Part shown: in pieces, positions 12,514 through 56,947 of the stretch | Layout of the letters: the number at the start of each line of letters is the position of its first letter | Position numbering within the stretch: the first letter of the stretch is position 1 | Assembly (NCBI RefSeq): GCF_054482525.1 | Contig: NZ_CM137006.1 | Length of the DNA stretch: 64,000 bases | Reading direction: 5' to 3' (one strand) | The notes under the pieces: model-generated | Database searches by the model: none | What the model saw: the letters and a program-made list of their open reading frames with translations, nothing else | Told to the model about the DNA's origin: nothing | Position numbers and translations under genes: made by a program

Positions 12514-13425
12514 ATGTATCAACGCTGTTTTGATAACGCCAGCGAAACGCTGTTTGTCGCCGGTAAAACGCCACGGCTTTCACGTTTTGCATTTAGCGAT
12601 GATCCAAAATGGGAGTCCGGACATCACGTTCATGACAATGAAACCGAGTTGATTTACGTCAAGAAAGGGGTAGCAAGGTTTACCATCGATTCTTCGTTAT
12701 ATGTCGCGCATGCCGATGACATTGTGGTGATAGAACGTGGCAGGCTGCATGCGGTGGCCTCTGACGTTAACGATCCAGCAACGACGTGTACCTGTGCGCT
12801 GTACGGCTTTCAGTTTCAGGGGGCTGAGGAAAATCAGCTACTGCAACCGCATTCTTGCCCGGTAATTGCCGCAGGGCAGGGAAAAGAAGTCATTAAAACC
12901 TTATTTAATGAGCTAAGTGTGATTTTGCCGCAAAGTAAAAATAGCCAAACATCTTCGTTATGGGACGCATTTGCCTATACGTTAGCAATTCTTTACTATG
13001 AAAACTTTAAAAATGCTTATCGTTCGGAGCAGGGGTATATTAAAAAAGATGTTCTGATAAAAGATATTCTTTTCTATCTGAATAATAATTATCGCGAAAA
13101 AATCACTTTAGAGCAGTTATCGAAAAAATTTCGTGCCAGCGTCAGTTATATTTGCCATGAATTTACCAAAGAGTATCGTATTTCCCCTATTAACTATGTT
13201 ATTCAACGGCGTATGACGGAAGCGAAATGGTCACTCACTAATACTGAATTATCACAGGCAGAGATCTCCTGGCGTGTGGGTTATGAAAATGTCGATCACT
13301 TTGCCAAACTGTTTTTGCGCCATGTCGGCTGTTCGCCCAGCGATTACCGCAGGCAATTTAAAAACTGTTTTGCGGAACAAGAAATCCTATCTGAATTTCC
13401 TCAACCAGTAAGTCTTGCCGGATAA
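12514..13425 (+). CDS. ydiP: AraC-family transcriptional regulator YdiP, 303 aa
   Basis: 303-aa ORF with C-terminal AraC-type HTH; divergent from ydiQ. Confidence 0.85.
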   Translation: MYQRCFDNASETLFVAGKTPRLSRFAFSDDPKWESGHHVHDNETELIYVKKGVARFTIDSSLYVAHADDIVVIERGRLHAVASDVNDPATTCTCALYGFQFQGAEENQLLQPHSCPVIAAGQGKEVIKTLFNELSVILPQSKNSQTSSLWDAFAYTLAILYYENFKNAYRSEQGYIKKDVLIKDILFYLNNNYREKITLEQLSKKFRASVSYICHEFTKEYRISPINYVIQRRMTEAKWSLTNTELSQAEISWRVGYENVDHFAKLFLRHVGCSPSDYRRQFKNCFAEQEILSEFPQPVSLAG

Positions 13426-21200: not shown

Positions 21201-21337
21201 CGTGTAATGGCTGCATGAAATAAACAATAAAATATAAATAACATTATCAGCCTGCCGACGGCTTGAAGAGAGTCACAGTATCTTGTGCAACATTATTGGA
21301 AAGCGTGAGGGGCGAGGTAGCGAAGCGGAAAAATGTT

Positions 21338-21407
21338 AAAAAAAAGCCCATCGTGGGAGATGGGCAAAGACTACACACAGCAATTCGTTGTTTCACTCAG
21401 GGGATTT
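21338..21407. repeat. Left attachment-site direct repeat (duplicate of the rprA 3' end and terminator, 70 bp)
   Basis: Identical to 32979-33048: aaaaaaaagcccatcgtgggagatgggcaaagactacacacagcaattcgttgtttcactcaggggattt. Confidence 0.9.
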
Positions 21408-21424
21408 AAGTCATTGATTGATTT

Positions 21425-22054
21425 ATGGGTATGCGGTTTTTCGGCATAAACCAAATTAAGCAAGGCTTGAAAATGGACACACAAATTGCACACATATCGC
21501 ACACAAATAAAAAGGGGTATGTATGGCGCAAGCGTTATGAAAAACGCACGATTGAAATCATCCTACGCACCCGTGATAAATCAATTGCCATAAAAAGAGC
21601 GGCATCAATAACAATTCGCTATATGGAATTAAAATCACTTGACGTTCCATTTAAAGCAATGCTGGAAATGTTAAAAAAGTTTCGTGATGGTCTGATTACG
21701 TCACATGACATTGAGCGCTTAAGGTCGATTGCGATAGCTTCACAGGAAGCTCCACACGCCGCTGTAACCGCTTCGCCTATACAAAGTGTTGGCTATGATG
21801 TCAAAACCGCTCAGAAAGCCGCACAGGGGCATTCCCTTGGCGATGCTCAAAAAGTGTACTTTGGCGCCAACACCGAATGGAAAGAAAAAACCATCAAGGC
21901 TTATTCTGGTTGTATCGACCGCTTTATTTTATGGTGCGCTAATAAAAATATTCATACCGTGGAAGAAATAACGAAAGAGCATGTGATTTCATTTAAATCC
22001 AGCATGGATGAAGAAAAATTAGCCTCCATGACTAAATTTCGCATAATAATATGA
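21425..22054 (+). pseudogene. Tyrosine-integrase-like N-terminal fragment (core-binding/SAM-like region only, catalytic domain missing)
   Basis: 209-aa ORF; the segment KTIKAYSGCIDRFILWCANKNIHTVEEITKEHVISF resembles an integrase core-binding domain; no R..HxxR..Y catalytic region follows; sits next to the att repeat. Confidence 0.4.
21477..21509. repeat. Three tandem ~11-bp repeats (acacacaaatt / gcacacatatc / gcacacaaata), candidate integrase arm-type sites, left end
   Basis: Direct tandem repeats ~70 bp inside the left att repeat; a matching triplet lies ~70 bp inside the right repeat. Confidence 0.5.
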
Positions 22055-24750: not shown

Positions 24751-24920
24751 ATTCACCTGAATATTCACCGAATGATTCACCTGAATCATTCAGCCCTTCA
24801 TTCACCACGAAACCCAGGCGCGGCGGGGCTTACAGGCCGATTCATTCACCTGAATATTCACCTGAATATTCACCTGAATTATTCAACCAAAAATTCACCT
24901 TCATATTCACTCATTCACCT
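24751..24920. repeat. Iteron array: two clusters of three 12-bp tandem repeats (ATTCACCTGAAT) plus degenerate copies
   Basis: Units at 24751, 24763, 24775 and at 24844, 24856, 24868 with further TTCACC copies; lies upstream of the Rep ATPase operon. Confidence 0.6.
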
Positions 24921-24957: not shown

Positions 24958-25236
24958 TGATGAATGAAGGTCGTTCAAGTGAATGAACTGTGAGTTGGGT
25001 AAACCCCTAGGGGTTGGGGGTGTTGTCGATTTGTGGTAAATTCCTTCTGCCAGCGTGAAAAAGGCGCTGGTGGGGATTTGCAGCCCCAAACAAACAAAAC
25101 CATTGGCAAGGAATTGCCGATGCGCGTGCGCACGTCAGTTATGGCGGTCACGGCGAGGGAGTCGAAAGGCTCGCCAGTTTTGTTTGTTTGCTGGTACTGC
25201 AAACCTCGTCGTGATCGTCACCACGGGGATGCATGT

Positions 25237-25488
25237 ATGCAGGAAACAGACTGGCACAAAGCGGATATTCTTGCCTCTTTAAAGAAAAAGAAAATCAGCA
25301 TGGCGGGATTATCCCGTGAACATGGTTTATCAAGTAGCACGTTGCTAAATGCACTTAGTAGAGAATGGCCTAGAGGCGAATTAATTATTGCTAATGCAAT
25401 TGGTGTGTCACCTCAAGAAATATGGCCTTCTAGGTATTTTGAAAAAGATGGCTCTCCAAAAAATCGTGTGATTCGTAAACCTGTTTAA
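25237..25488 (+). CDS. Ner/Nlp (SfsB)-family HTH DNA-binding regulator, ~83 aa
   Basis: MQETDWHKADILASLKKKKISMAGLSREHGLSSSTLLNALSREWPRGELIIANAIGVSPQEIWPSRY closely resembles Ner/Nlp; I prefer the internal ATG at 25237 over the 151-aa ORF start. Confidence 0.6.
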   Translation: MQETDWHKADILASLKKKKISMAGLSREHGLSSSTLLNALSREWPRGELIIANAIGVSPQEIWPSRYFEKDGSPKNRVIRKPV

Positions 25489-25705: not shown

Positions 25706-25751
25706 CCTTTTCTTTGCTTCACCAGCCCCGTAGGGGCGTGAGCGTAGCGAA
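25706..25751. repeat. 46-bp direct repeat, copy 1 (ccttttctttgcttcaccagccccgtaggggcgtgagcgtagcgaa)
   Basis: Identical to 29912-29957; contains a gcccc-gta-ggggc hairpin; ~100 bp upstream of the 383-aa gene. Confidence 0.85.
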
Positions 25752-25849
25752 CCTAATCACTTTGATTTTGACACATATCGGTTCTATCATTTTCAGGAAA
25801 ATCATCATAGAATTATATAAAACATACGATTTTTAAGGTGAATTTTTAA

Positions 25850-27001
25850 ATGCACGAGAAAGCGCAAACAAAAATAAAAGATACTATTAGAGAAATACTA
25901 ATCACTCCAGCAATCGCTTTTACTGGTCGTGCAGGTCATTTTGATTTTTCATTATATGAAGTTTTAGCAAATGAGCTTAACAAAAGAAAGATAAAGTTTA
26001 AAATTGATAAATTATCATGTTGGATTATTTTTGATGGCGCAAAAAAACATTACTTTCAAGATAAATCAATTACTGACGCACAAGCGATAAATGATTTTGT
26101 GGATACGTTATGTAGTATTTACTGTGAAACACCTATGGATTACTCCATCGATTTTCACTTTAGAAATTTAAAAATCGATATCAACCCGATTGATTATGAG
26201 TTTGTTTCAATTAGAGCGGGTGAGGATATTGGTATTGGTTTGTTCGCTGAAAAAGAAAAGTATGCGATTGCGAGCATTAAAAAGAATGGCTATCTTTCAG
26301 GTGGTTATCCTAGCTCATTTATAAAATCGATTTTGCAAGATTTGAAAATCTTCATTTTTTTGATTAAAAGCATTAATTTGATTAAGACAGGAAAAACCAA
26401 TTTAGCATCCACGTTATTTCAATCGATGTCCGGTCATGCTGACACAATTAAGATTGATTGCGTTAATGTTAAATATCCTTGGATGAATAGCAGTGTCCAT
26501 ATTTCAGAGTCGGTAGGGAAATTTTTACACAACTTTATCTTCAATTATGAATTTGAAGAAGGCTACATTATAGAAAAAATAGATCATTCGCTTCAGCTAA
26601 TGAATGCAATAGTAAAAGATGAGTCAAAAGAAGCCTTGCGTATCAAGGCTGCAATTGATTGGTTGGTGCAATCTGAAATCACTGATGATGAAACCATGTC
26701 TTTTATTCAAATTTGCATGGGGCTTGAATCAATTTTTGGTGATGATGATTATGAGGGTGGCCTAACAAACATACTATCTGATAGATGCGCCTACTTAATA
26801 GGGAATAAAATTAAAGAGAGGAGATTTATAAAGGACACATTTAAAAAAATATATCAAGTTAGGTCAAAGATAGTGCATGGCGTAAGAAATCATTTATCAG
26901 ATGATGAATTATATTTTAGGCATTTAGCATATTCATATTTAGAGCGTTCTATTCTAAAAGAAATTCAAAATTTAGACCTGCAATCCCATCAGGCGACGTG
27001 A
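25850..27001 (+). CDS. Hypothetical protein with C-terminal HEPN-like R-x4-H-G motif, 383 aa
   Basis: AGGTGA RBS 8 nt upstream; C-terminal ...KKIYQVRSKIVHGVRNH matches the R-x4-6-H signature of HEPN RNases; strongly AT-rich. Confidence 0.4.
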   Translation: MHEKAQTKIKDTIREILITPAIAFTGRAGHFDFSLYEVLANELNKRKIKFKIDKLSCWIIFDGAKKHYFQDKSITDAQAINDFVDTLCSIYCETPMDYSIDFHFRNLKIDINPIDYEFVSIRAGEDIGIGLFAEKEKYAIASIKKNGYLSGGYPSSFIKSILQDLKIFIFLIKSINLIKTGKTNLASTLFQSMSGHADTIKIDCVNVKYPWMNSSVHISESVGKFLHNFIFNYEFEEGYIIEKIDHSLQLMNAIVKDESKEALRIKAAIDWLVQSEITDDETMSFIQICMGLESIFGDDDYEGGLTNILSDRCAYLIGNKIKERRFIKDTFKKIYQVRSKIVHGVRNHLSDDELYFRHLAYSYLERSILKEIQNLDLQSHQAT

Positions 27002-28894: not shown

Positions 28895-29179
28895 ATGGTT
28901 AAATTTGGAGTGTTTTACCATCATGCATGGGGTGATGGTAAAAAGGAAATCCCGCCACCTGATTTAAATTACATCCGAACCGATCCACATAAAAATAATG
29001 AAATTGCTTTAGATGTTTTTGATTCAAGAATGGACGCACAAAAACGCGCTGATTTACTAAATTCACGCATGGCAAAAAATCAAACTGGTCAGCATTATGT
29101 TGCGCCAACAACGCAAGAAACCAAAACGGCTCAAAAGCGCTTTAAGTTTCCTTGTACTAGCATTTATGGGTGGAAATGA
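28895..29179 (+). CDS. Hypothetical protein, 94 aa (paralog family A)
   Basis: AGAGGA RBS; N-terminus MVKFGVFYHHAWGDG is similar to the next gene's N-terminus. Confidence 0.45.
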   Translation: MVKFGVFYHHAWGDGKKEIPPPDLNYIRTDPHKNNEIALDVFDSRMDAQKRADLLNSRMAKNQTGQHYVAPTTQETKTAQKRFKFPCTSIYGWK

Positions 29180-29181
29180 AA

Positions 29182-29556
29182 ATGAGTAAACAATTCGGTG
29201 TTTTCTTTTGGCGAAAAGGTGACGCTATTACCGATATCCCGTCAGATAAAAATGTTGCAAATCGCGGAGTAAAGCCTAAGCGCATTTTTTCAGATTATAT
29301 TGATGGAATGCGATATAAAGATAAAATGAATGCAACAATTCCAGCGGCGCAAAAAGGTAAATATGAATATGTATTAGCGGAAATTGTTGAACCAGACCCG
29401 AACAATACAAAGGTGTTGTTTAAATCTGGAAATTTAACAGAAGCATTAAGGGCGAAGCGACAAACAACCGAACAAATCAACCGAAATAAAATTGATGCAA
29501 TGATTAAAGAAGCCGCACACGATTACCTTTACACTATTACAGGAATGGAAAAATGA
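29182..29556 (+). CDS. Hypothetical protein, ~124 aa (paralog family A)
   Basis: N-terminus MSKQFGVFFWRKGDA parallels the upstream gene; GGTGGA RBS; start at 29182 preferred over 29170. Confidence 0.45.
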   Translation: MSKQFGVFFWRKGDAITDIPSDKNVANRGVKPKRIFSDYIDGMRYKDKMNATIPAAQKGKYEYVLAEIVEPDPNNTKVLFKSGNLTEALRAKRQTTEQINRNKIDAMIKEAAHDYLYTITGMEK

Positions 29557-29852
29557 TTATTGACGAGCGATTTATTAAATGGTCAATGGTGCTGGTGGAG
29601 GCCGGAAAGCCATCACCCAGCCTCGCGGGGCTTTATAAAGGAAACACTAAAGGATTAATCTTTTATAAAACACGTGAATTGGCATCAAATGCAGCCACTA
29701 AACGGAATGAGCAATTAGCAGGAACTAAATCAACCAGCCGATTTAAAATCATTAAATTGCATGACGCAGAAGCACAACAGAAACATGATTTTCAGTTAAA
29801 ACAGGAACGCCAGCGCCGCGATGCACGCCATATGCGCCGATTTGGTTTCTAA
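29553..29852 (+). CDS. Hypothetical basic protein, 99 aa
   Basis: 4-bp ATGA overlap with the upstream gene suggests translational coupling; Lys/Arg-rich C-terminus. Confidence 0.4.
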   Translation: MIIDERFIKWSMVLVEAGKPSPSLAGLYKGNTKGLIFYKTRELASNAATKRNEQLAGTKSTSRFKIIKLHDAEAQQKHDFQLKQERQRRDARHMRRFGF

Positions 29853-29911
29853 ATATAACTCAATAACTCAACCAATGGTGATGTTAAAGAATAAGGTGGC
29901 CTTAAATTTCA

Positions 29912-29957
29912 CCTTTTCTTTGCTTCACCAGCCCCGTAGGGGCGTGAGCGTAGCGAA
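29912..29957. repeat. 46-bp direct repeat, copy 2
   Basis: Identical to 25706-25751; 37 bp upstream of the tape-measure-like gene. Confidence 0.85.
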
Positions 29958-29993
29958 ATAAGTAACATTAATATCAAATCAGAGGTAAATAAA

Positions 29994-31982
29994 ATGGCAG
30001 GTGAAAATGCTCAATTGGGCTTTTCCGTCGATACATCGGAAGTGGAAACAGCATCAAAAAGGCTTAATGAATTAGCTAAATCAGCGCAAGGGGCGGCTGA
30101 TTCGGCTGGCAAATTATCAGATTCATTTGAGGAAAGTATGAAGGGTGTTAATTCATCAATTACTTCCAATCATCAGGCTATGCGCGAATTAACGGTAATG
30201 ATGCACGAAGCAATGTCTGGTAATTGGTCGCGCTTGCGTGGTTCTGCAATGATTATGGGCGGCGCATTGGGATTTGGTGGATTAACTAGCGGTGCGGTAG
30301 TTGGTGGAATTACGCTTGTTTCGGAAGGCATTGAATCGCTAATTGAAGGAATGCGAGAAGCTCAAAAAGCAGAAACTGAATTAAATAATTCTGCTGTAAT
30401 TACAGCAGATGTAAGCCTTTTAAATAGTGATTATGTTGATTCACTTACTATTGGTTATGAGAAATTAGGCTATTCAGCAACACAAGCAAAAGGCATGATT
30501 GCAGCGTTAAGTAATGCGGGTATGTTTGGTGATGAATTTAGTGTTGCAGGTAAACAAATTGCCGCACTATCTAAAGCGTTAGGCGGTAATTCAGACGAAC
30601 AAAAAAAATTAGCTGGTCAATTTGGTGGCTTGTATTCTGACCCGCTAGGACACGTTAACGAATTTTTCCAAGTAACAAACGGATGGATTACCAAAACCGA
30701 ACAAAACCGAATTAATGCGGCTGAACAATCGCATAATTCAGCACAAGCTGAAATGGCTATGCAAGAAGCGCTATTAGATGTTTATAAGCGTCAAACCGAT
30801 ATGCTACAGCTTAAAGCCTATTTGGAAACTAACGCCGCTACATATTCAGCCTTTCAGACGCGCGAACAATTCGGCAGCGCATGGGGTAAGGGCGAAAAAG
30901 AAAAGGCAGACGCATTTATCAAGCAATATGACGAGCGCCAGCAATCATTTAATCAGGGCGTTGAAAAGCTAAAAGGAAGCATTCACGAAACAGGACGCCA
31001 GATAAGGGAAAATGTAGAAGAATTTAATAAAGGAATGCATCCCCATAAAGTGCATACACACCACGGATTAACAGCAATTGAGAAAGCAGCTAAACAATTG
31101 GTGACCTACCAAACCCAAATTAAACAGGCTGGTTTGCAATTTGACCAGCAAATTAATTCAATTGGTGATTCAGTAAATAATGCGTGGAGTAATAAATTAT
31201 ACTCTTATTCAATGTCTTCTGACCAGAATGATTTTGCAAACCGAATTGAACAAATCAATGAACAATTCGACCGTATGCGCGAAAATGTAGACCGTTTGGC
31301 GCTGCAACATCATAAATCAATTGGTTCAAAAGAATATGTTGAAATGTTCCAAAAAATCGAATTAGGGCGCAAAAACGTATTGGCTGAAAACGTTGCTGGA
31401 TTTAATGAAATGGAGTCATTGCAGCATTCAGCGCTGGCGGGAATGGATGAGGGATGGATTAAATACCAGAAGCAGGTTAATGATGTTGCAAGCCAATCAG
31501 AGAAAGTTTTTGATACGGCTGTTGAGGGAATGACAAATTCATTAACTGATTTCTTTACAACTGGTGAGGCTGGTTGGACTAATTTTGTAAAATCAATCGC
31601 AACAATCACTGAAAAATACATGGTTCAAGATTGGATTGTTGAGCCGCTAGCAGGATTAGTAAAAGGGGGGATTAGCTCGCTATTTTCATCAAATCCATTG
31701 AGTTCAACGGCTAACACTTTTGCCGTTCCCGATATTCCAAAATTGGGCGCAACTCATTTAGGAGGCGGTCTAGGTTCGACCGCACCAGTTATCAATATCA
31801 CCATTAATGACAATGGCAACAAAGGCGGCGTTGATAGCAATGTTAGCGGCACAACAGGGCAAGTACAAAAAATGGGGGCGGCGCTAGATAAATTCCTGCA
31901 AAACTATATCAAAGAGCAAAACGTAAAATCCAACCGTCAGGGCGGGTTAAACAAAACAATGGGGAACTGGTCGACAAGATAA
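29994..31982 (+). CDS. Phage tail tape-measure protein homolog (lambda gpH-like), 662 aa, orphan
   Basis: Glycine-rich hydrophobic segment MIMGGALGFGGLTSGAVVGGITLV near the N-terminus, long helical middle, C-terminal FDTAVEGMTNSLTDFFTTGEAGWTNFVKSI and ...VINITINDNG matching, from memory, the lambda H C-terminal region; AGAGGT RBS. Confidence 0.6.
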   Translation: MAGENAQLGFSVDTSEVETASKRLNELAKSAQGAADSAGKLSDSFEESMKGVNSSITSNHQAMRELTVMMHEAMSGNWSRLRGSAMIMGGALGFGGLTSGAVVGGITLVSEGIESLIEGMREAQKAETELNNSAVITADVSLLNSDYVDSLTIGYEKLGYSATQAKGMIAALSNAGMFGDEFSVAGKQIAALSKALGGNSDEQKKLAGQFGGLYSDPLGHVNEFFQVTNGWITKTEQNRINAAEQSHNSAQAEMAMQEALLDVYKRQTDMLQLKAYLETNAATYSAFQTREQFGSAWGKGEKEKADAFIKQYDERQQSFNQGVEKLKGSIHETGRQIRENVEEFNKGMHPHKVHTHHGLTAIEKAAKQLVTYQTQIKQAGLQFDQQINSIGDSVNNAWSNKLYSYSMSSDQNDFANRIEQINEQFDRMRENVDRLALQHHKSIGSKEYVEMFQKIELGRKNVLAENVAGFNEMESLQHSALAGMDEGWIKYQKQVNDVASQSEKVFDTAVEGMTNSLTDFFTTGEAGWTNFVKSIATITEKYMVQDWIVEPLAGLVKGGISSLFSSNPLSSTANTFAVPDIPKLGATHLGGGLGSTAPVINITINDNGNKGGVDSNVSGTTGQVQKMGAALDKFLQNYIKEQNVKSNRQGGLNKTMGNWSTR

Positions 31983-32043
31983 TATTATGTTGCTTAGTAA
32001 GTCTAAACTTTACGCCCTAATTAGGGCGTTTTATTTAAAAAAG

Positions 32044-32661
32044 TTAATTTGCTGTATTTTCTCTCATCTTTCTAAGTTCTGGCAATACTTTCTTATAGAA
32101 TTTCGTAGTGGAATCAGCGCAGTAGTTTTGCAGATACTTATAGTTTTCTTCAAATTTAGGGAGATCTTTAGCTACCGTCAATTGCTTTGGTAAAGTTCCG
32201 GTAGCATCATCGGTTATATCAAATGTTATTGAATTATGTTTTCGATCTTCATTAACTTTTTTTAAAGTGGCAACAATAGGGCTTTTATCCATAGAACCAT
32301 CTATTAGTTGGCGAACTTGAAACTTCCTTGGGATTATAAAATTAATTACTGACGGAGGTTCACTATTTAATGTTATATTCCAAGTTATTGGCATAGCATC
32401 ACATAAACCTTCAGATATTATTTCACCATCAATTGAACCATCAGAATTGGCGATAAATTGTATTATAACAAGTGGTTGATCTTTATTTAAGCCAAGATCT
32501 CCACTATTTATTATATATTCAGCGTCTGTCGACCATTTGCCTGTTAGAAATTCTTTTTGATAAAGTGCTTCATTTATTTCACCTCTATATGGTAAATATA
32601 GACCTATAGCACCAATTGCAACACCTAATACAGTGCATATTGTTGTTATTCGTCCACTCAT
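32044..32661 (-). CDS. Membrane-anchored hypothetical protein, 205 aa
   Basis: N-terminal hydrophobic helix ITTICTVLGVAIGAIGLYLPY; AT-rich; at the island edge. Confidence 0.45.
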   Translation of the reverse strand: MSGRITTICTVLGVAIGAIGLYLPYRGEINEALYQKEFLTGKWSTDAEYIINSGDLGLNKDQPLVIIQFIANSDGSIDGEIISEGLCDAMPITWNITLNSEPPSVINFIIPRKFQVRQLIDGSMDKSPIVATLKKVNEDRKHNSITFDITDDATGTLPKQLTVAKDLPKFEENYKYLQNYCADSTTKFYKKVLPELRKMRENTAN

Positions 32662-32875
32662 ATCACACTCGTTATCTTATCCTTGTTGTAGTTAAGCATT
32701 TTATTTTATTTTTTTATTGTGAAAATGGCTAGTTTTAGTTGGGTCTTGCGCTGAATCTAACGAGTGCTTACCCCGTGAAGTGATTTATGATTAAAGTTCG
32801 TTTTGTTTTTGGTTAAAAAATGAACATGTGAGTGCTTTGGAAAATTTCTGTAACACTCACCTGATTTACGCTGGT

Positions 32876-32909
32876 AGCACACAAATGGTACACAAACGGC
32901 ACACAGGTA
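32876..32909. repeat. Three tandem ~11-bp repeats (agcacacaaatgg / tacacaaacgg / cacacaggtaa), candidate integrase arm-type sites, right end
   Basis: Mirrors the left-end triplet; same orientation; ~70 bp inside the right att repeat. Confidence 0.5.
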
Positions 32910-32978
32910 ATCGCATACCTTTAATGACCTAATTTCTTCAAGCCCCTGCATTGCTGCGTTTGTCGTGATTTTCGGCAT

Positions 32979-33048
32979 AAAAAAAAGCCCATCGTGGGAG
33001 ATGGGCAAAGACTACACACAGCAATTCGTTGTTTCACTCAGGGGATTT
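32979..33048. repeat. Right attachment-site direct repeat (3' 70 nt of intact rprA)
   Basis: Identical to 21338-21407. Confidence 0.9.
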
Positions 33049-33084
33049 CCATGCTTATAAATCAATATGTTGATTTATAACCGT
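32979..33084 (-). ncRNA. rprA: Small regulatory RNA RprA (activator of rpoS translation)
   Basis: Minus-strand sequence ACGGTTATAAATCAACATATTGATTTATAAGCATGGAAATCCCCTGAGTGAAACAACGAATTGCTGTGTGTAGTCTTTGCCCATCTCCCACGATGGGCTTTTTTTT matches RprA from memory, including the intrinsic terminator; lies between ydiK and ydiL. Confidence 0.85.
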
Positions 33085-33269
33085 GAGCTAATAGTAGGCA
33101 TACGGACTTTTTGCGTCGATCAGATTCGTCTCATTAGTTTAAAAACTGTAAAGAATTTGCGACAGGTACTACCAGCTGAATGGCGGTAAGCAGGAAAATA
33201 TGGGGAAGAGCAAGCAAATATCAATTAGCGGTGGTTAACAATCAGGCGGCAGAGCCGCCTGATGAGAAA

Positions 33270-34382
33270 TTACTTATTCGGTTTCTCTATTTCGCCAAGT
33301 TCTTCGAGAACTTCTTCCGGTTGGTCAGTCGGCGGTGGGACTTCTTCCACCCACGCGGCAAAAAGACGCCAGGAAACGGCTAACAGAACCGGACCAATAA
33401 ACAGGCCGATCATCCCGAAAGCAATCAAACCACCAATAACGCCAGAGAGGATCAGGATCAGCGGTAAATCGGCACCCATGCGAATTAACATTGGGCGGAT
33501 GACGTTATCCAGCGTGCCGACCACACCGCTCCACACTAACAGTACCGTTCCCCAGGTGGTATCACCGGTCCAGTAGAGCCAGATAATCGCCGGAATCAGT
33601 ACCGGCAATGGTCCAAGCTGGACAAGGCAGGAGAGGATCATTAACACCGTGAGCAAAGTTGCATAAGGTACGCCGGATACGGCGAGGCCGATACCGCCAA
33701 GCACTGCCTGTACTAACGCTGTCACCACAACACCCAGCGCCACCGCGCGGATAGCTTGTGCCGCTAGCAGCACGGCGGCATCTCCACGAACGCCTGCCAG
33801 ACGGGTTGCAAAATGGCGAATGCCTTGTGCCACCTGTTCACCGCGCCAGTACAGCAGGGCACTGAAGAGAAGCATCAGCGCACAATGCACCATAAAGCGC
33901 CCGATATGCGCCGCTTGCCCAACGAACCAGGTGGTGGTGGTGCCAATATAAGGACGGACTTTTGCCATGATCGCCGTCCCCCCCATATCCAGCAAGTTGT
34001 GCCAGCCTGCATACAGCTTCGCGCCAATCACCGGAATGGTATTAAGCCACGCCAGATCGGGTAACGTCATGTCACCGCTGGAAATGGCTTTAATTAGCGG
34101 GCCGCTGCCGTCGACGATACTGTTAACCAGCAAGGCAATAGGGATGATAAACACCATCACTAATAACAGCGTCATCACCAGAACGGCGAGAGAGCGGCGA
34201 CCAAACATGATCTTTTGCAAACGTAACAATACCGGCCAGGTGGCGATGACCACCGTACCAGCCCATGCAAAGCCGAGAATAAAGGGTTGTACAATCCACA
34301 GACATGCCACAATCATGATGGCTAAAAAGAGCACCGAAAGCAGAATTTGTGCGACATCCCTGGGCTGACGAACATTTACCAT
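33270..34382 (-). CDS. ydiK: AI-2E family (UPF0118) inner-membrane transporter YdiK, 370 aa
   Basis: 370-aa multi-TM ORF; upstream neighbour of rprA as in K-12. Confidence 0.88.
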   Translation of the reverse strand: MVNVRQPRDVAQILLSVLFLAIMIVACLWIVQPFILGFAWAGTVVIATWPVLLRLQKIMFGRRSLAVLVMTLLLVMVFIIPIALLVNSIVDGSGPLIKAISSGDMTLPDLAWLNTIPVIGAKLYAGWHNLLDMGGTAIMAKVRPYIGTTTTWFVGQAAHIGRFMVHCALMLLFSALLYWRGEQVAQGIRHFATRLAGVRGDAAVLLAAQAIRAVALGVVVTALVQAVLGGIGLAVSGVPYATLLTVLMILSCLVQLGPLPVLIPAIIWLYWTGDTTWGTVLLVWSGVVGTLDNVIRPMLIRMGADLPLILILSGVIGGLIAFGMIGLFIGPVLLAVSWRLFAAWVEEVPPPTDQPEEVLEELGEIEKPNK

Positions 34383-34770
34383 AACTACTTTTCACCTTTT
34401 TTGTGCGTCAAATCGTCGACGCGACGTGAACACGCGAAACTCACTTGCATAATGATGAGCAATTTCAGCGGTTTTTAACAGGCCGATTCTGCCCTTAATT
34501 CTGATGGGCGTGTTAGAAAAAAATGTGGTACAACAACTCAGGCAACACGCAAACGATTTACTCGTCGTATTTCAAGTTGCATGTGCTGCGGCTACGTTCA
34601 TTCACCCCAGTCACTTACTATTGTAAGCTCCTGGAGTTCACTCGCTTGCCGCCTTCCTGCAACACGAAATCCATAGAGTAAACAAACATCACCTTTCAGT
34701 GCGCTATTGCAGCAGCCTGAAAGAATAGTGTATCGACCTACATCACAGACCGCAGGAAAGGGTCAATATA

Positions 34771-37700
34771 ATGATTCCACAGATTTCCCAGGCACCCGGC
34801 GTCGTTCAACTGGTGCTTAATTTTTTGCAAGAGCTGGAGCAACAGGGGTTTACCGGCGATACGGCGACAAGTTATGCCGATCGTCTGACAATGTCGACCG
34901 ACAACAGTATTTACCAACTTCTCCCCGATGCGGTGGTATTTCCGCGTTCAACCGCAGATGTGGCGCTGATCGCCCGTCTTGCCGCGCAGGAACGCTATTC
35001 ATCGCTGATCTTTACCCCCCGCGGCGGCGGCACCGGCACTAACGGTCAGGCGCTCAACCAGGGGATTATTGTTGATATGTCCCGCCATATGAACCGCATC
35101 ATCGAAATTAACCCTGAAGAGGGCTGGGTGCGCGTTGAGGCCGGGGTGATAAAAGACCAACTCAATCAGTACCTGAAACCGTTCGGCTACTTTTTTGCGC
35201 CGGAGCTTTCGACCAGCAACCGGGCAACGCTCGGCGGGATGATCAATACCGATGCGTCCGGTCAGGGATCGCTGGTCTATGGCAAAACGTCAGATCACGT
35301 ACTTGGCCTACGTGCGGTATTGTTGGGGGGCGATATTCTCGATACGCAACCTTTACCCGTCGAGCTGGCGGAAACGCTGGGTAAATCCAATACCACAATC
35401 GGGCGAATTTATAACACGGTTTATCAACGTTGCCGTCAGCAACGCCAGTTAATCATCGACAACTTCCCCAAACTTAACCGCTTTCTTACCGGTTACGATC
35501 TGCGTCATGTCTTTAACGATGAGATGACCGAGTTCGACCTGACGCGCATTCTGACGGGTTCAGAAGGGACGCTGGCCTTTATTACCGAAGCGCGGCTGGA
35601 TATTACGCCCTTGCCTAAAGTGCGCCGTCTGGTGAACGTCAAATATGACTCTTTTGACTCCGCGCTGCGTAACGCGCCGTTTATGGTTGAGGCGCGGGCG
35701 CTTTCGGTAGAGACGGTGGACTCAAAAGTGCTGAATTTGGCGCGGGAAGATATTGTCTGGCATTCCGTCAGCGAGTTGATTACCGATGTGCCTGACAAAG
35801 AAATGCTCGGGCTGAACATTGTGGAATTTGCTGGTGATGATGAGACGCTGATTGATGAGCGGGTAAATGCACTCTGTGCGCGGTTGGATGAACTGATTGC
35901 CAGCCAACAGGCAGGTGTGATTGGCTGGCAGGTGTGCCGCGAACTGGCGGGTGTTGAACGTATCTATGCGATGCGCAAAAAAGCTGTTGGTCTGCTTGGC
36001 AATGCCAAAGGTGCCGCTAAGCCAATTCCGTTTGCTGAGGATACCTGCGTACCGCCGGAACATCTGGCAGATTATATTGCTGAATTTCGCGCGCTGCTCG
36101 ACAGCCACGGCTTAAGCTACGGTATGTTCGGTCACGTCGACGCAGGTGTCTTGCACGTCCGTCCGGCACTGGATATGTGCGATCCGCAACAAGAGATTTT
36201 GATGAAGCAAATCTCTGATGATGTAGTGGCGCTTACCGCGAAATACGGTGGTTTGTTGTGGGGCGAACACGGCAAAGGTTTTCGCGCCGAATACAGCCCG
36301 GCGTTTTTTGGTGAGGAACTTTTTGCAGAACTGCGTAAAGTGAAAGCGGCATTTGACCCGCATAACCGACTCAACCCTGGGAAGATTTGCCCGCCAGAAG
36401 GTCTCGATGCGCCGATGATGAAAGTGGACGCGGTGAAGCGCGGTACATTCGATCGACAGATCCCCATTGCGGTACGCCAGCAGTGGCGTGGTGCAATGGA
36501 GTGTAACGGCAACGGTTTATGCTTCAACTTTGATGCCCGCAGTCCGATGTGCCCGTCGATGAAGATTACCCAGAACCGGATTCATTCACCGAAAGGGCGC
36601 GCAACGCTGGTGCGTGAATGGCTGCGTTTGTTGGCAGATCGCGGCGTTGACCCACTCAAACTGGAACAAGAGCTGCCTGAATCAGGCGTCAGTTTGCGGA
36701 CGTTAATTGCCCGCACGCGCAATAGCTGGCATGCGAATAAAGGCGAATATGACTTCTCCCACGAAGTCAAAGAGGCGATGTCTGGTTGCCTGGCCTGTAA
36801 AGCGTGTTCGACACAGTGCCCAATCAAAATTGACGTGCCTGAGTTTCGTTCTCGCTTTCTGCAACTCTATCACACCCGTTATTTGCGCCCGCTGCGCGAC
36901 CACCTCGTCGCCACGGTCGAGAGCTACGCACCGCTGATGGCACGCGCGCCGAAAACCTTTAACTTCTTCATTAACCAGCCGCTGGTGCGCAAACTCTCGG
37001 AAAAACATATCGGCATGGTTGATTTGCCGCTGCTGTCGGTCCCCTCGCTACAACAACAAATGGTGGGGCATCGCTCGGCAAACATGACGCTGGAACAGCT
37101 TGAAGCTCTCAGTGCAGAGCAGAAAGCGCGCACGGTGCTGGTGGTGCAGGACCCCTTTACCAGCTATTACGATGCGCAAGTGGTGGCGGATTTTGTCCGT
37201 CTGGTCGAAAAATTAGGTTTCCAGCCGGTGTTACTGCCATTTTCGCCAAATGGCAAAGCCCAGCATATCAAAGGCTTTCTTAATCGTTTTGCGAAGACGG
37301 CGAAAAAGACGGCGGATTTCCTCAACCGTGTGGCGAAGCTGGGGATGCCAATGGTGGGCGTCGATCCGGCGCTGGTACTTTGTTATCGCGATGAATATAA
37401 ACTGGCGCTGGGCGAGGAACGTGGCGAGTTTAACGTCTTACTGGCGAATGAATGGCTGGCAAGCGCACTTGACTCACAGCCAGTGGCTACAGTCAGCGGT
37501 GAATCATGGTATTTCTTTGGTCACTGTACCGAAGTTACCGCTTTGCCGGGCGCGCCAGCACAATGGGCCGCGATATTTGCCCGTTTTGGCGCGAAACTGG
37601 AAAATGTCAGCGTGGGTTGCTGCGGCATGGCAGGGACTTACGGACATGAAGCGAAAAACCATAAAAATTCGCTCGGGATCTATGAGTTATCCTGGCATCA

Positions 37701-37827
37701 GGCGATGCAGCGACTGCCGCGTAATCGCTGTCTGGCGACCGGATATTCCTGCCGTAGCCAGGTAAAACGGGTCGAAGGCACGGGGGTACGCCATCCTGTG
37801 CAGGCTTTACTGGAGATTATTAAATGA
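34771..37827 (+). CDS. ydiJ: FAD-linked oxidoreductase with Fe-S/CCG domains YdiJ, 1018 aa
   Basis: 1018-aa ORF; FAD-binding (PCMH-type) N-terminus and Cys-rich C-terminus. Confidence 0.9.
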   Translation: MIPQISQAPGVVQLVLNFLQELEQQGFTGDTATSYADRLTMSTDNSIYQLLPDAVVFPRSTADVALIARLAAQERYSSLIFTPRGGGTGTNGQALNQGIIVDMSRHMNRIIEINPEEGWVRVEAGVIKDQLNQYLKPFGYFFAPELSTSNRATLGGMINTDASGQGSLVYGKTSDHVLGLRAVLLGGDILDTQPLPVELAETLGKSNTTIGRIYNTVYQRCRQQRQLIIDNFPKLNRFLTGYDLRHVFNDEMTEFDLTRILTGSEGTLAFITEARLDITPLPKVRRLVNVKYDSFDSALRNAPFMVEARALSVETVDSKVLNLAREDIVWHSVSELITDVPDKEMLGLNIVEFAGDDETLIDERVNALCARLDELIASQQAGVIGWQVCRELAGVERIYAMRKKAVGLLGNAKGAAKPIPFAEDTCVPPEHLADYIAEFRALLDSHGLSYGMFGHVDAGVLHVRPALDMCDPQQEILMKQISDDVVALTAKYGGLLWGEHGKGFRAEYSPAFFGEELFAELRKVKAAFDPHNRLNPGKICPPEGLDAPMMKVDAVKRGTFDRQIPIAVRQQWRGAMECNGNGLCFNFDARSPMCPSMKITQNRIHSPKGRATLVREWLRLLADRGVDPLKLEQELPESGVSLRTLIARTRNSWHANKGEYDFSHEVKEAMSGCLACKACSTQCPIKIDVPEFRSRFLQLYHTRYLRPLRDHLVATVESYAPLMARAPKTFNFFINQPLVRKLSEKHIGMVDLPLLSVPSLQQQMVGHRSANMTLEQLEALSAEQKARTVLVVQDPFTSYYDAQVVADFVRLVEKLGFQPVLLPFSPNGKAQHIKGFLNRFAKTAKKTADFLNRVAKLGMPMVGVDPALVLCYRDEYKLALGEERGEFNVLLANEWLASALDSQPVATVSGESWYFFGHCTEVTALPGAPAQWAAIFARFGAKLENVSVGCCGMAGTYGHEAKNHKNSLGIYELSWHQAMQRLPRNRCLATGYSCRSQVKRVEGTGVRHPVQALLEIIK

Positions 37828-38234
37828 TATGGAAACGAAAAATCACCCTGGAAGCACTGAATGCTATGGGTGAAGGAAACATGGTGGGGTTGCTGGATAT
37901 TCGCTTTGAACATATTGGTGATGACACCCTTGAAGCGACAATGCCAGTAGACTCGCGGACAAAGCAGCCTTTCGGGTTGCTGCATGGAGGAGCATCCGTG
38001 GTACTGGCCGAAAGTATCGGTTCCGTTGCCGGTTATTTATGTACCGAAGGTGAGCAAAAAGTGGTTGGTCTGGAAATCAATGCTAACCACGTCCGCTCGG
38101 CACGAGAAGGGCGGGTGCGCGGCGTATGCAAACCGTTGCATCTCGGTTCGCGTCACCAGGTCTGGCAGATTGAAATCTTCGATGAGAAAGGGCGTTTGTG
38201 CTGTTCGTCACGATTGACGACCGCGATTTTGTGA
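37824..38234 (+). CDS. menI: 1,4-dihydroxy-2-naphthoyl-CoA hydrolase (hotdog thioesterase) MenI/YdiI, 136 aa
   Basis: 136-aa ORF; 4-bp overlap with ydiJ. Confidence 0.9.
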   Translation: MIWKRKITLEALNAMGEGNMVGLLDIRFEHIGDDTLEATMPVDSRTKQPFGLLHGGASVVLAESIGSVAGYLCTEGEQKVVGLEINANHVRSAREGRVRGVCKPLHLGSRHQVWQIEIFDEKGRLCCSSRLTTAIL

Positions 38235-38333
38235 CGTTGTCACCAGAAAAGTGTGACGCATATTGCTTTTGGTCATTATCTGCACAGTAAACGGTGGTAT
38301 ACTGTGCAGGTCTTGTCTAAAAGCGAGGATGCT

Positions 38334-38522
38334 ATGTCTACTCAACTTGATCCCACCCAGCTGGCCATTGAATTTTTACGCCGTGACCAGAGCAATCTTT
38401 CACCTGCCCAATATCTCAAACGTCTGAAACAACTAGAACTTGAATTTGCTGACCTGCTTACTCTCTCTTCTGCTGAATTAAAAGAAGAAATCTACTTTGC
38501 CTGGCGTCTGGGCGTGCATTGA
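38334..38522 (+). CDS. ydiH: Uncharacterised small protein YdiH, 62 aa
   Basis: Internal ATG gives MSTQLDPTQLAIEFLRRDQSNLSPAQYLKRLKQLELEFADLL (62 aa). Confidence 0.7.
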   Translation: MSTQLDPTQLAIEFLRRDQSNLSPAQYLKRLKQLELEFADLLTLSSAELKEEIYFAWRLGVH

Positions 38523-38747
38523 TCCTGACTTAATGCCGCAATTTCGCCAAATCGACCTGGATTAACCTCCGTCCAGGTTCGATGACCTTCTTAATACTGC
38601 TTATCTACCCGCCTGATATTGTTCAAAAATAATACTAATCGCAGTTTGTGTTAAAACGGCGGGTTAGCTTTATGAGATTATTCTTATCGCCCCTTCAAGA
38701 GCTAAGCCACTGAGAGTGCCGGAGATAAGCGCCGGATGGGGTAGAAA

Positions 38748-38788
38748 CCCTTAAGCCTGTGTCGCACAGACTTAAGGGTTTTCTTATT
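38748..38788 (+). terminator. Rho-independent terminator-like hairpin in the ydiH-sufA intergenic region
   Basis: cccttaagcctgtg...cacagacttaaggg stem followed by ttttcttattt. Confidence 0.5.
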
Positions 38789-38874
38789 TCTGAACGCTGC
38801 ACTTTTTTACCTATCTCTTAAATAGTCATTTTCAATACAACTTTTTCTTTTTCATCACAGCCTTAATGCTCCTT

Positions 38875-38890
38875 AGATAATAATCATTAT
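38875..38890. promoter_or_regulatory. Fur-box-like sequence in the suf promoter region (distal)
   Basis: gataataatcattatc resembles the Fur consensus GATAATGATAATCATTATC. Confidence 0.5.
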
Positions 38891-39010
38891 CTAACAATGA
38901 GATACCTAATTCTTAGCGTGCCTGTTAACCCACACATCAGGGTCTATGCTTATTAAAAGCAGGAAAAAAGCATGTTTTACGGTAAAGCCCCTGCGTTTGC
39001 TGGGTTGAAC

Positions 39011-39025
39011 TGATAATCATTATCA
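39011..39025. promoter_or_regulatory. Fur box in the sufA promoter (proximal)
   Basis: tgataatcattatca is a near-perfect Fur palindrome ~50 bp upstream of sufA; the suf operon is known to be Fur-repressed. Confidence 0.6.
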
Positions 39026-39070
39026 CTAACATGCTGTTATACGCTGAAAGCGATGAAGTGAGGTAAATCG

Positions 39071-39439
39071 ATGGACATGCATTCAGGAACCTTTAATCCA
39101 CAGGATTTTGCCTGGCAGGGCTTAACGCTGACACCCGCAGCCGCTGTCCACATCCGCGAGCTGGTGGCAAAGCAGCCGGGTATGGTCGGCGTGCGCTTAG
39201 GCGTGAAGCAAACGGGCTGCGCGGGCTTTGGCTATGTGCTCGACAGTGTTAGCGAGCCGGACAAAGACGATCTGCTGTTTGAACACGACGGCGCGAAGCT
39301 GTTTGTCCCGCTGCAAGCGATGCCGTTTATTGATGGCACGGAAGTCGATTTCGTTCGTGAAGGACTTAATCAGATATTTAAATTTCACAACCCTAAAGCC
39401 CAGAATGAATGTGGCTGTGGCGAAAGCTTTGGGGTATAG
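39071..39439 (+). CDS. sufA: Fe-S cluster assembly A-type carrier SufA, 122 aa
   Basis: 122-aa ORF with C-terminal CGCGESF motif. Confidence 0.93.
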
Positions 39440-39447
39440 GCGGTACT

Positions 39448-40935
39448 ATGTCTCGTAATACTGAAGCAACTGACGATGTCAAAACCTGGACCGGCGGCCC
39501 GCTGAATTATAAAGAAGGATTCTTCACCCAGTTAGCCACCGATGAGCTGGCAAAGGGGATAAACGAAGAGGTGGTGCGCGCAATTTCGGCGAAGCGTAAT
39601 GAGCCGGAGTGGATGCTGGAGTTTCGTCTCAACGCCTATCGCGCATGGCTGGCGATGGAAGAGCCGCACTGGTTGAAAGCGCACTACGACAAGCTGAATT
39701 ATCAGGATTACAGCTACTACTCAGCACCATCGTGCGGTAATTGTGACGACAACTGCGCGTCTGAACCCGGCGCGGTGCAGCAAACTGGCGCGAACGCCTT
39801 TTTAAGTAAAGAGGTGGAGGCGGCGTTTGAGCAGTTGGGCGTTCCCGTGCGGGAAGGCAAAGAGGTGGCGGTGGATGCCATTTTCGACTCTGTTTCGGTT
39901 GCCACCACTTATCGCGAAAAACTGGCGGAGCAGGGAATTATTTTCTGTTCCTTTGGCGAGGCGATCCACGATCACCCGGAACTGGTGCGTAAATATCTCG
40001 GCACCGTGGTGCCGGGGAATGACAACTTCTTTGCCGCACTTAATGCGGCGGTAGCCTCTGACGGTACGTTTATTTATGTGCCTAAAGGCGTGCGCTGCCC
40101 GATGGAACTTTCCACCTATTTTCGTATTAACGCGGAAAAAACCGGGCAGTTTGAGCGCACCATTCTGGTGGCCGACGAAGACAGCTACGTTAGCTACATT
40201 GAAGGCTGTTCCGCTCCGGTGCGTGACAGCTATCAGTTACACGCGGCGGTGGTGGAAGTCATCATCCATAAAAACGCCGAGGTGAAATATTCCACGGTAC
40301 AAAACTGGTTCCCTGGCGATAACAACACCGGCGGTATTCTCAACTTCGTCACCAAGCGTGCTTTGTGCGAAGGCGAAAACAGCAAAATGTCATGGACGCA
40401 ATCAGAAACCGGGTCAGCGATTACGTGGAAATATCCCAGCTGTATTTTGCGCGGCGATAACTCCATTGGTGAGTTTTACTCAGTGGCGCTGACCAGCGGT
40501 CATCAGCAAGCGGATACCGGCACCAAGATGATCCACATCGGTAAAAACACCAAATCAACCATTATCTCGAAAGGGATCTCTGCCGGACATAGTCAGAACA
40601 GTTATCGCGGCTTAGTGAAAATCATGCCGACGGCAACCAATGCGCGCAATTTCACTCAGTGCGACTCAATGCTGATTGGCGCTAATTGTGGGGCGCATAC
40701 CTTCCCGTATGTCGAATGTCGCAATAACAGTGCACAACTGGAGCACGAGGCAACGACATCACGTATTGGTGAAGATCAACTGTTTTACTGCCTGCAACGC
40801 GGGATCAGCGAAGAAGACGCCATCTCGATGATTGTTAACGGTTTCTGCAAAGACGTGTTCTCAGAACTGCCGCTGGAATTTGCCGTTGAAGCACAAAAAC
40901 TCCTCGCCATCAGTCTTGAACACAGCGTCGGATAA
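39448..40935 (+). CDS. sufB: Fe-S cluster assembly scaffold SufB, 495 aa
   Basis: Internal [17 protein letters not shown] gives 495 aa. Confidence 0.93.
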
Positions 40936-40944
40936 GGAATAAAC

Positions 40945-41691
40945 ATGTTAAGTATTAAAGATTTACACGTCAGCGTGGAAGATAAAGCTATCCTGCGTCG
41001 ATTAAGCCTCGACGTTCGTCCCGGCGAAGTTCACGCCATTATGGGGCCAAACGGTTCGGGCAAAAGTACCTTATCGGCAACGCTTGCCGGGCGAGAAGAT
41101 TATGAGGTGACGGGCGGCACGGTTGAGTTCAAAGGCAAAGATTTGCTTGCGCTGTCGCCGGAAGATCGTGCAGGTGAAGGCATCTTTATGGCCTTCCAGT
41201 ATCCGGTGGAAATTCCCGGCGTCAGTAACCAGTTTTTCCTGCAAACGGCACTTAATGCGGTGCGCAGCTATCGCGGCCAGGAAACGCTCGACCGCTTTGA
41301 TTTTCAGGATTTGATGGAAGAGAAAATCGCTCTCCTGAAGATGCCGGAGGATTTATTAACCCGTTCGGTAAACGTTGGTTTTTCCGGCGGCGAGAAAAAG
41401 CGCAACGATATTTTGCAAATGGCGGTGCTGGAACCGGAGTTATGCATTCTTGATGAGTCGGACTCCGGGCTGGATATTGACGCATTAAAAGTGGTTGCCG
41501 ATGGCGTGAACTCGCTGCGTGACGGCAAGCGCTCATTCATCATTGTTACGCACTACCAACGCATTCTCGACTACATCAAGCCTGATTACGTCCATGTGCT
41601 GTATCAGGGACGAATTGTGAAATCCGGCGATTTCACGTTGGTCAAACAACTGGAGGAGCAGGGTTATGGCTGGCTTACCGAACAGCAGTAA
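40945..41691 (+). CDS. sufC: Fe-S cluster assembly ATPase SufC, 248 aa
   Basis: ABC ATPase with Walker A GPNGSGKST. Confidence 0.95.
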   Translation: MLSIKDLHVSVEDKAILRRLSLDVRPGEVHAIMGPNGSGKSTLSATLAGREDYEVTGGTVEFKGKDLLALSPEDRAGEGIFMAFQYPVEIPGVSNQFFLQTALNAVRSYRGQETLDRFDFQDLMEEKIALLKMPEDLLTRSVNVGFSGGEKKRNDILQMAVLEPELCILDESDSGLDIDALKVVADGVNSLRDGKRSFIIVTHYQRILDYIKPDYVHVLYQGRIVKSGDFTLVKQLEEQGYGWLTEQQ

Positions 41692-42937
41692 CGCGCTGCA
41701 ACAGTGGCATCACTTGTTTGAAGCTGAAGGGACAAAACGCTCACCGCAAGCACAGCAGCATTTACAACAATTGCTGCGTACCGGACTGCCGACACGTAAA
41801 CATGAAAACTGGAAATATACGCCGCTGGAAGGGCTGACCAATAGCCAGTTTGTCAGCATTGCGGGAGAGATATCCCCACAGCAGCGTGATGCCTTAGCGT
41901 TAACGTTAGACGCCGTGCGGCTGGTGTTTGTCGATGGACGTTACGTGTCAGCACTGAGCGATGCAACTGAAGGCAGCGGATATGAAGTGAGCATTAACGA
42001 CGACCGTCAGGGGTTACCCGACGCTATTCAGGCGGAAGTGTTTCTGCATTTGACGGAAAGCCTGGCACAAAGCGTGACGCATATCGCCGTGAAGCGCGGT
42101 CAACGACCGGCAAAGCCATTGCTGTTAATGCATATCACCCAGGGCGTGGCAGGTGAAGAGGTCAACACTGCCCATTACCGACATCATCTGGATCTGGCGG
42201 AAGGTGCCGAAGCAACGGTGATCGAACATTTTGTCAGCCTTAATGATGCTCGTCACTTCACCGGCGCACGGTTCACTATCAACGTCGCAGCGAACGCCCA
42301 CTTGCAGCATATCAAGCTGGCGTTTGAAAACCCGCTCAGTCACCACTTTGCCCATAACGATTTGTTGCTGGCTGACGATGCCACCGCATTTAGCCACAGT
42401 TTCCTGCTGGGTGGCGCAGTGTTACGACACAACACCAGTACGCAACTCAATGGCGAAAACAGCATGTTGCGGATCAATAGCCTGGCGATGCCGGTGAAAA
42501 ACGAGGTGTGTGATACCCGTACCTGGCTGGAACACAATAAAGGTTTTTGTAACAGCCGACAGTTGCACAAAACTATCGTCAGCGACAAAGGCCGCGCGGT
42601 ATTTAACGGTTTGATCAACGTCGCGCAGCACGCCATCAAAACGGATGGTCAGATGACCAACAATAATCTGCTGATGGGCAAACTGGCGGAAGTGGATACG
42701 AAACCGCAGCTGGAAATCTATGCAGATGATGTGAAATGCAGCCACGGCGCGACGGTGGGGCGTATTGATGATGAACAGATGTTCTATCTGCGCTCGCGCG
42801 GGATCAATCAGCAGGATGCCCAGCAGATGATCATTTACGCCTTTGCTGCCGAATTGACGGAAGCACTGCGTGATGAGGGGCTTAAACAGCAGGTGCTGGC
42901 CCGAATCGGTCAACGGCTGCTAGGAGGTGCAAGATGA
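41666..42937 (+). CDS. sufD: Fe-S cluster assembly protein SufD, 423 aa
   Basis: 423-aa ORF overlapping the sufC 3' end. Confidence 0.93.
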
Positions 42938-56943: not shown

Positions 56944-56947
56944 AGGA

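Follow-up and report, generated by a model that had tools for sequence, protein, structure and literature searches.

In the attP site of phage lambda, the arm-type sites (P1, P2, and P'1-P'3) share a short motif distinct from the core that occurs on both sides of it within about 250 bp, three of these sites lie in tandem roughly one helical turn apart on the int-proximal arm, and the cognate integrase joins a three-strand-plus-helix N-terminal domain via a linker to its core-binding and catalytic domains. In the mycobacteriophages L5, Giles, Cluster K CrimD, and Pixie, predicted 11-bp arm repeats flank the core 5' of int, with those of Pixie forming a pair and a set of three in direct orientation, and the arm-site consensus co-varies with substitutions at the Int N-terminus (PMC3203893). 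Features of this sort are the routine basis for inferring arm-type sites in phages. A further arrangement is found in systems of the KplE1 IntS / P4 Int type, in which int overlaps attL and represses itself; in KplE1, an arm site overlaps the -10 box of the int promoter (PMC2951348). The current study concerns a mobile island of E. coli with likenesses to all of these. Both of its ends carry arrays of 11-bp direct repeats, which, judging from sequence comparison and a predicted structure, are very likely to be bound by the island's own tyrosine integrase as its arm-type (P and P') sites. As in lambda, the repeat is short, distinct from the core, and present on both sides of it, with three tandem units about one helical turn apart on the int-proximal arm and the same order of domains predicted for the integrase. 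As in the mycobacteriophages, the flanking repeats are 11 bp in length, direct, and co-varying with Int N-termini, and as in KplE1 IntS and P4, int is read outward from attL with arm sites overlapping its 5' control region. There are clear distinctions as well. Unlike lambda, the island has three sites per arm, all in one orientation, its int gene is transcribed away from att with the P' sites inside the coding sequence, its target is the terminator end of an sRNA gene, its arm sites are predicted ones, and its integrase gives no Pfam arm-domain match. The mycobacteriophage arm sites lie outside the int ORF and belong to unrelated hosts and integrases, whereas the P' sites of the island lie inside it.

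The window, by which we mean the entire 64-kb stretch of DNA that was analyzed, is E. coli chromosome with the gene order ydiL - rprA - ydiK and with rydB and two tRNA-Val genes beyond. An 11.6-kb mobile island has inserted into rprA, a minus-strand sRNA gene, within its 3' part. Repeat finding and comparison with the empty attB yielded a perfect 71-bp duplication in direct orientation, the attL copy (21337-21407) being the displaced 3' part of rprA and the attR copy (32978-33048) the 3' part of the intact gene. The latter is the integration target and occupies 32977-33084 on the minus strand, as identified by Rfam (RF00034, 118.8 bits) and the RefSeq annotation of the identical SCU-102 region. 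The empty sites of other E. coli, for which short contigs served as the attB references, read B + 71 bp + B', whereas the ends in the window read B-O-P' and P-O-B', which is the signature of conservative site-specific integration. No description of rprA as an attachment site was found in the literature searched. The identical island is present in 3 of 5,426 complete E. coli genomes (SCU-102, 19KM1776, and PCN033), and relatives with 83-88% identity occupy the same site in FREC5 and S10, where they encode an intact 401-aa tyrosine recombinase (WP_157898536.1 in FREC5). As a separate observation, RefSeq lists a second rprA gene at the attL partial copy (21336-21456, minus strand; 81 bits for RprA). 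Only its 3' 71 nt are rprA sequence, the remainder being island DNA, so this second gene is probably an annotation artefact.

Among the genes of the rprA islands are those for a helicase-primase, a HEPN protein, and a tape-measure-like protein, together with one for a C4-type antisense RNA. In the window, the HEPN-domain protein is encoded at 25850-27001 and a 662-aa protein matching tail tape-measure families at 29994-31982, without capsid genes, and the island looks like a phage satellite of an undescribed type. The C4-type RNA (25137-25225, plus strand; Rfam RF01695, 65.8 bits) lies directly 5' of an HTH repressor gene (25237-25488, plus strand; PHROG 769), a pairing that has the appearance of a P1/P4-style RNA immunity module. 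At 24751-24910, with the helicase-primase operon on one side and the genes for the C4 RNA and the repressor on the other, the 12-bp direct repeat ATTCACCTGAAT forms two blocks (3.4 and 5.5 copies), which are in part inverted with respect to each other and are probably an origin or operator of the island. The island also contains two copies (25706-25766 and 29912-29972) of a 61-nt repeat that includes a GC-rich hairpin (CAGCCCCGTAGGGGCGTG), and a third copy is found 3' of int in the intact FREC5 relative (L002 21290-21359). Outside the island, a match to the Rfam family HPnc0260 (112 bits) at 56742-56905 on the plus strand adjoins or overlaps the tRNA-Val genes (56867-57024); the family name comes from Helicobacter, which makes this an odd match in E. 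coli.

The anatomy of the two arrays is simple. The left (P'-arm) array, ACACACAAATT GCACACATATC GCACACAAATA, occupies 21477-21509 on the plus strand and supplies the candidate sites P'1-P'3, while the right (P-arm) array of candidate sites, GCACACAAATG GTACACAAACG GCACACAGGTA, is non-coding and occupies 32877-32909 on the plus strand. Each consists of three head-to-tail 11-bp units, and Tandem Repeats Finder calls a period of 11 for both alike. The original prediction had placed three such units about 70 bp inside the left att repeat, which agrees with a gap of 69 bp from array to att block. It had also described a mirror set about 70 bp inside the right repeat. The array is there, 68 bp from the att block, but it starts at 32877 rather than 32876, and the mirroring extends to position only, as both arrays share the plus-strand orientation and are direct rather than inverted repeats.

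Additional sequence features accompany the arrays. In the P' arm, the spacer that separates the att block from int (21408-21472, plus strand) has a weak Shine-Dalgarno sequence (AAGG at -11) together with the 8-mer GGTATGCG at 21428-21435, and the P-arm spacer from the right array to the att block (32910-32977, plus strand) starts with CGCATACC at 32911-32918. The latter is the inverse of the former, with one copy per arm, and the pair is kept in relatives. Immediately 5' of the right array, a 39-bp block (32838-32876, plus strand; GAAAATTtcTGTAACACTCaCCTGATTTACGC) is retained in the window, FREC5, S10, and a Citrobacter freundii island, whereas the sequence further out is unrelated. Both this block and the GGTATGCG/CGCATACC pair may be sites for accessory proteins. 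No good match to the IHF consensus was seen by eye between the arm sites and the core, and no RDF site was identified there. Within the arms, we found no extra single arm sites above background, other than a weak minus-strand match at 32825.

It is evident from computation that arrays of this kind are not a general property of the surrounding DNA. When both strands of the 64-kb window are searched, YACACA at positions i, i+11, and i+22 occurs in exactly two places, namely the two arrays, against an analytic expectation of 6.75e-6 over 128,000 strand positions and 0 occurrences in 500 block shuffles; YACACA pairs at any other period from 6 to 19 are absent from the window. Similarly, a single-unit matrix run over the whole window places the six array units among its nine best matches. 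With up to 2 mismatches allowed, the plain 10-mer shows no enrichment across the window (67 occurrences against 92.6 expected). A motif occurring throughout at comparable density would have spoken against the original prediction; within the window, the triple is confined to the arrays.

The left array is also part of the integrase gene. As listed, the int ORF starts with an ATG at 21425, but several lines of evidence place the real start at the ATG at 21473, giving a truncated gene of 193 codons (21473-22054, plus strand). This is the equivalent of the CDS start used by PGAP in SCU-102 (an identical record), FREC5, and S10; the homologues all begin M-x-T-Q... at the equivalent position; relatives have an in-frame stop 3-6 codons 5' of this ATG; and a Shine-Dalgarno sequence (GAGG/AAGG) is located at -11. 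The start codon and the att block are 66 bp apart, int is read outward from attL, and the array, at +4 to +36, encodes residues 2-12 (DTQIAHISHTNK), a peptide stretch that is conserved in the protein family. It had been proposed that the array falls within the first ~30 codons and that the true start may be downstream of the repeats. The first statement is superseded by the precise placement at codons 2-12. The second is ruled out by the PGAP starts, the homologues, and the 5' stops, by the conservation of the array peptide, which includes a predicted β-strand, and by the absence of any in-frame ATG, GTG, or TTG from the left array to the GYVWRKRY core (with its invariant G15, W18, and R19), the next start being Met53.

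Pfam and NCBIfam recognize only the SAM-like core-binding and catalytic domains of Int. Nevertheless, its first 55-60 residues are conserved over 21 homologues (34-100% identity) and are followed by a variable linker. In an AlphaFold2 model, this N-terminal portion forms three strands (residues 8-11, 15-22, and 25-30) and a helix (36-54), succeeded by a long helix (60-89), and a disordered linker (90-117), with the core-binding and catalytic domains after it. When the whole model is compared with the PDB, full-length lambda Int structures match best (1z1g and 1z1b, with more than 400 aligned columns), while the predicted three-strand-plus-helix N-domain matches the arm-binding domains of lambda Int (2wcc) and the Yersinia HPI Int (3jtz). 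Sequence identity to the HPI arm-binding domain and to AP2 DNA-binding domains is only 11-12%, and HPI Int differs further in belonging to the P4-like group with tRNA gene targets, whereas the island Int targets rprA. The fold predicted for the island Int N-domain is thus of the kind that reads arm-type sites, and the model provides the separate N-terminal domain and linker expected of an arm-binding integrase. The codons for the first strand of this domain, β-1 (residues 8-11, ISHT), lie in units 2 and 3 of the left array.

This dual role complicates any argument from conservation. Across the window, FREC5, and S10, the left region shows 98% identity, which says little because the region is coding; selection on the peptide product confounds any conservation seen in the left array. 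The right array is more informative in being non-coding. It lies within an 80-bp block (32838-32918) that is kept in the window, FREC5, and S10, whereas the DNA outside this block is unrelated among the three islands owing to a different neighboring gene in each. In S10, the DNA from the conserved block to att (after 32918) diverges as well. Beyond these close relatives, a period-11 triplet is found within a few bases of the int start codon at 9 of 12 loci of the integrase family, and an additional locus outside those 12 (L029) has three CACACA at 11-bp spacing. Three distant relatives (L018, L009, and L007) exhibit no clear period-11 array at the int 5' end.

A stricter comparison comes from matrices whose weights were taken from the three left units only and which were then scanned across the whole locus on both strands (29,000-44,000 windows each), for those loci with both ends at hand. 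In 7 of 7 loci from 5 lineages, the best non-self match was the same-strand array just inside attR. In the window, this match is at 32877 (28.0 bits), and in the FREC5 (L002) and S10 (L003) islands it is at 32823 (24.5 bits) and 34348 (25.2 bits), respectively. The C. freundii rprA island (L013), scanned with a matrix from the left units of L004, gave its top match at 14117 (22.8 bits), and L010, a 6.3-kb rprA element with a 52% identical Int, gave it at 16120 (21.4 bits). The loci with the two least similar integrases of this set behaved in the same manner, with top matches at 13076 (33.6 bits) in a C. freundii element whose Int is 37% identical (L015) and at 14585 in an Enterobacter hormaechei element whose Int is 36% identical (L017), the latter being a weak array of 16.6 bits. 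For a single locus, the chance of a top match falling within ~150 bp of attR on the right strand is roughly 0.004. The expectation that related islands carry the arrays at both ends is therefore borne out by FREC5, S10, C. freundii, and the matrix test as a whole.

These results also bear upon the possibility that the left array arose merely from the demands of coding or translation, in which case its likeness to the right array would be incidental. Such an origin has some appeal, since the peptide is conserved down to 36% identity and translation in E. coli can be enhanced by CA-rich sequence 3' of the start codon, as this CA-rich stretch might do. However, the 11-bp period is not divisible by 3, and the units are consequently read in three frames; the right array is non-coding, on the same strand, and the top matrix match in every locus tested; the layout recurs in the L015 lineage, whose unit is not CA-rich; and the chance expectation is only 7e-6. 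We consider this explanation very improbable, the matrix test having already largely refuted it. Codon usage points in the same direction as the preferred arm-site reading. In 7 of 7 loci of the YACACA group (Int identity from 100% to 52%), which are not independent of one another, Thr3 is encoded by ACA and His7 by CAC, and this synonymous choice is consistent with a constraint at the DNA level.

The arm units change with the integrase. In the E. coli islands the unit is GCACACAAAT, with CACACA five times and TACACA once, whereas the C. freundii island, with a 78% identical Int whose N-terminus reads MGTQLAHKQYT..., has GYRCACA, with TACACA and CGCACR in both arms and no CACACA. The element L015, which occupies the 5' end of a peptidase M32 gene, uses the unit TTCATGCAC in both arms; a reading of its ends suggests an identity block of ~99 bp. 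Its units at int codons 2-12 are ATTCATACACG, ATTCATGCACT, and TTTCATGCACC, and those located 37 bp inside attR are CTACATGCACG, ATTCATGCACT, and TTTCATACGCC. A 21-nt identical stretch is common to both arrays, which suggests concerted evolution rather than independent maintenance. Just past attR of this element (13222-13320), there is also a decayed second P' arm with an int 5' end (GTGATTCACTCACTTTTCATAAACAC), evidently the remnant of an earlier tandem insertion in the same peptidase M32 site.

In the family as a whole, the arrays are found not only in satellite-like islands but also at the left end of SU10-like prophages and in small, unrelated elements. L005, L006, L018, and L029 are SU10-like prophages, L015 has siphovirus tail genes, and L017 is small and decayed. 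With cargo so wholly different among the elements, the arrays belong to the integrase module, and the sites follow the Int lineage whatever the cargo or target. This pattern is difficult to reconcile with the arrays serving the island as packaging signals or as iterons for replication. Iterons do typically consist of short tandem direct repeats, but these arrays are placed at the extreme ends around att rather than by the helicase-primase genes, they accompany int across elements with unrelated replication or structural genes, and the ATTCACCTGAAT repeats near the replication and immunity genes make a better candidate. Of the explanations considered, we regard this one as the least probable.

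A protein other than Int could conceivably bind the arrays, such as an excisionase/RDF or a host bending protein. The Xis sites of lambda are likewise tandem direct repeats with a spacing of about one turn, the conserved block adjoins the right array, and no RDF of the island was identified. Conversely, RDF sites normally occupy one arm, whereas here equal triplets are present on both; the motif changes with the Int lineage among elements that are otherwise unrelated in gene content; and Int has a dedicated predicted arm-binding domain that needs sites. We judge an accessory protein to be an unlikely occupant. The comparative evidence together with the predicted structure strongly supports the arm-type (P/P') reading originally proposed, as well as its use in marking the boundaries.

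If the arrays are arm-type sites of Int, several inferences can be made regarding their function. Firstly, upon excision, the right end of the island would be joined to the left via a single att block, producing an attP of ~275 bp in the order array (33 bp), 68 bp, 71-bp block, 69 bp, and array (33 bp), with all six sites facing the same way. The N-domain of Int (residues ~1-55) would presumably dock on each 11-bp unit, the one-turn spacing would place the three sites of an arm on one helix face, and the core-binding and catalytic domains at the C-termini of the same protomers would hold the core. With bending proteins folding the arms back, the resulting recombination complex could then carry out integration into, or excision from, rprA. 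Secondly, the crossover within the 71 bp probably lies at the rprA terminator hairpin (GCCCATC-N6-GATGGGC), as suggested by relatives with shorter identity. Both copies of this candidate core are on the minus strand, at 21346-21365 in attL and 32987-33006 in attR. In the SU10-like prophages at rprA and in L010, identity with the host extends over only ~31 bp (AAAAAAAAGCCCATCGTGGGAGATGGGCAAA), which is the terminator hairpin, and its 7-bp inverted repeat with a 6-nt spacer resembles a core-type pair around an overlap. Counting from the center of the hairpin, the arrays begin at about -120 (P) and about +121 (P').

Thirdly, the position of the P' array has implications for the expression of int. 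As the array corresponds to codons 2-12, Int bound there would occupy the 5' end of the gene that encodes it and would probably lower int expression. The gene is arranged as in known autoregulated systems, being read outward from attL with its 5' control region inside the recombination site, and the likeness to KplE1 IntS and P4 int predicts negative autoregulation by analogy. Unlike KplE1, the island sites are 3' of the start codon (+4 to +36), and a promoter search over 21250-21650, which covers the P' arm, gave no sigma-70 consensus promoter for int. The presence of P' sites inside the first twelve int codons throughout the family is the unusual aspect of these elements; a literature search for arm sites inside an int ORF gave nothing specific. 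The layout is kept from 100% to ~36% identity in the family. One might speculate that P' sites placed within the codons of their own reader, including those for β-1, constitute a built-in self-repression as well as an evolutionary lock, a proposal we consider plausible rather than probable.

The copy in the window has lost much of this machinery. The observation that its integrase is not intact was correct: compared with FREC5, the window has a 1,874-bp deletion at 22036/22037, which has removed a GIY-YIG nuclease gene along with int codons 189-401 and the 3' portion of the primase gene. What is left of Int comprises the arm-binding domain, the linker, and some of the core-binding domain; the catalytic domain is gone. 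Consequently, the sites are orphaned here and would be usable only with a related Int in trans, and this copy of the island should be immobilized and unable to excise alone.

A potential source of such an Int can be observed among the prophages. Members of the same Int family (47-58% identity) are found at the left end of SU10-like prophages, which were recognized by Pfam matches to portal and adaptor proteins. Two of these, in E. coli (L005, 10001-21224) and Klebsiella aerogenes (L006, 10001-21200), are located at the rprA terminator, and a third, in K. quasipneumoniae (L018), has a different insertion site. It is possible that SU10-like prophages act as helpers or as a source of Int in trans for the island. 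Copies of the L005-type prophage were absent from the complete E. coli genomes. The INPHARED phages include no close integrase, the best being 26-28% identical, and a search of IMG/VR for relatives returned one distant locus, ending at int, with no rprA terminator core among its viral contigs. A metagenome scan for a phage-type core/P' junction gave no match, a scan of GTDB genomes gave only 4 loci, and a 24-kb Logan contig with P0034 ends exactly at att.

Taken together, these integrases constitute a previously uncharacterized enterobacterial family that targets the rprA terminator and the 5' end of the peptidase M32 gene, and the boundaries and attP anatomy are now fixed for a rare satellite-like island. 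The sequences should be usable for designing int/attP tools. Were the P' sites indeed to function as both codons and operators, any new arm-site specificity would have to alter the Int N-terminus and be matched in the non-coding P arm, and the shifts from CACACA to CGCACA and to TTCATGCAC in both arms would represent snapshots of this co-evolution. The family would thus offer a compact natural case in which the co-evolution of arm-site specificity and the Int N-terminus may be followed at a site that lies within the gene.
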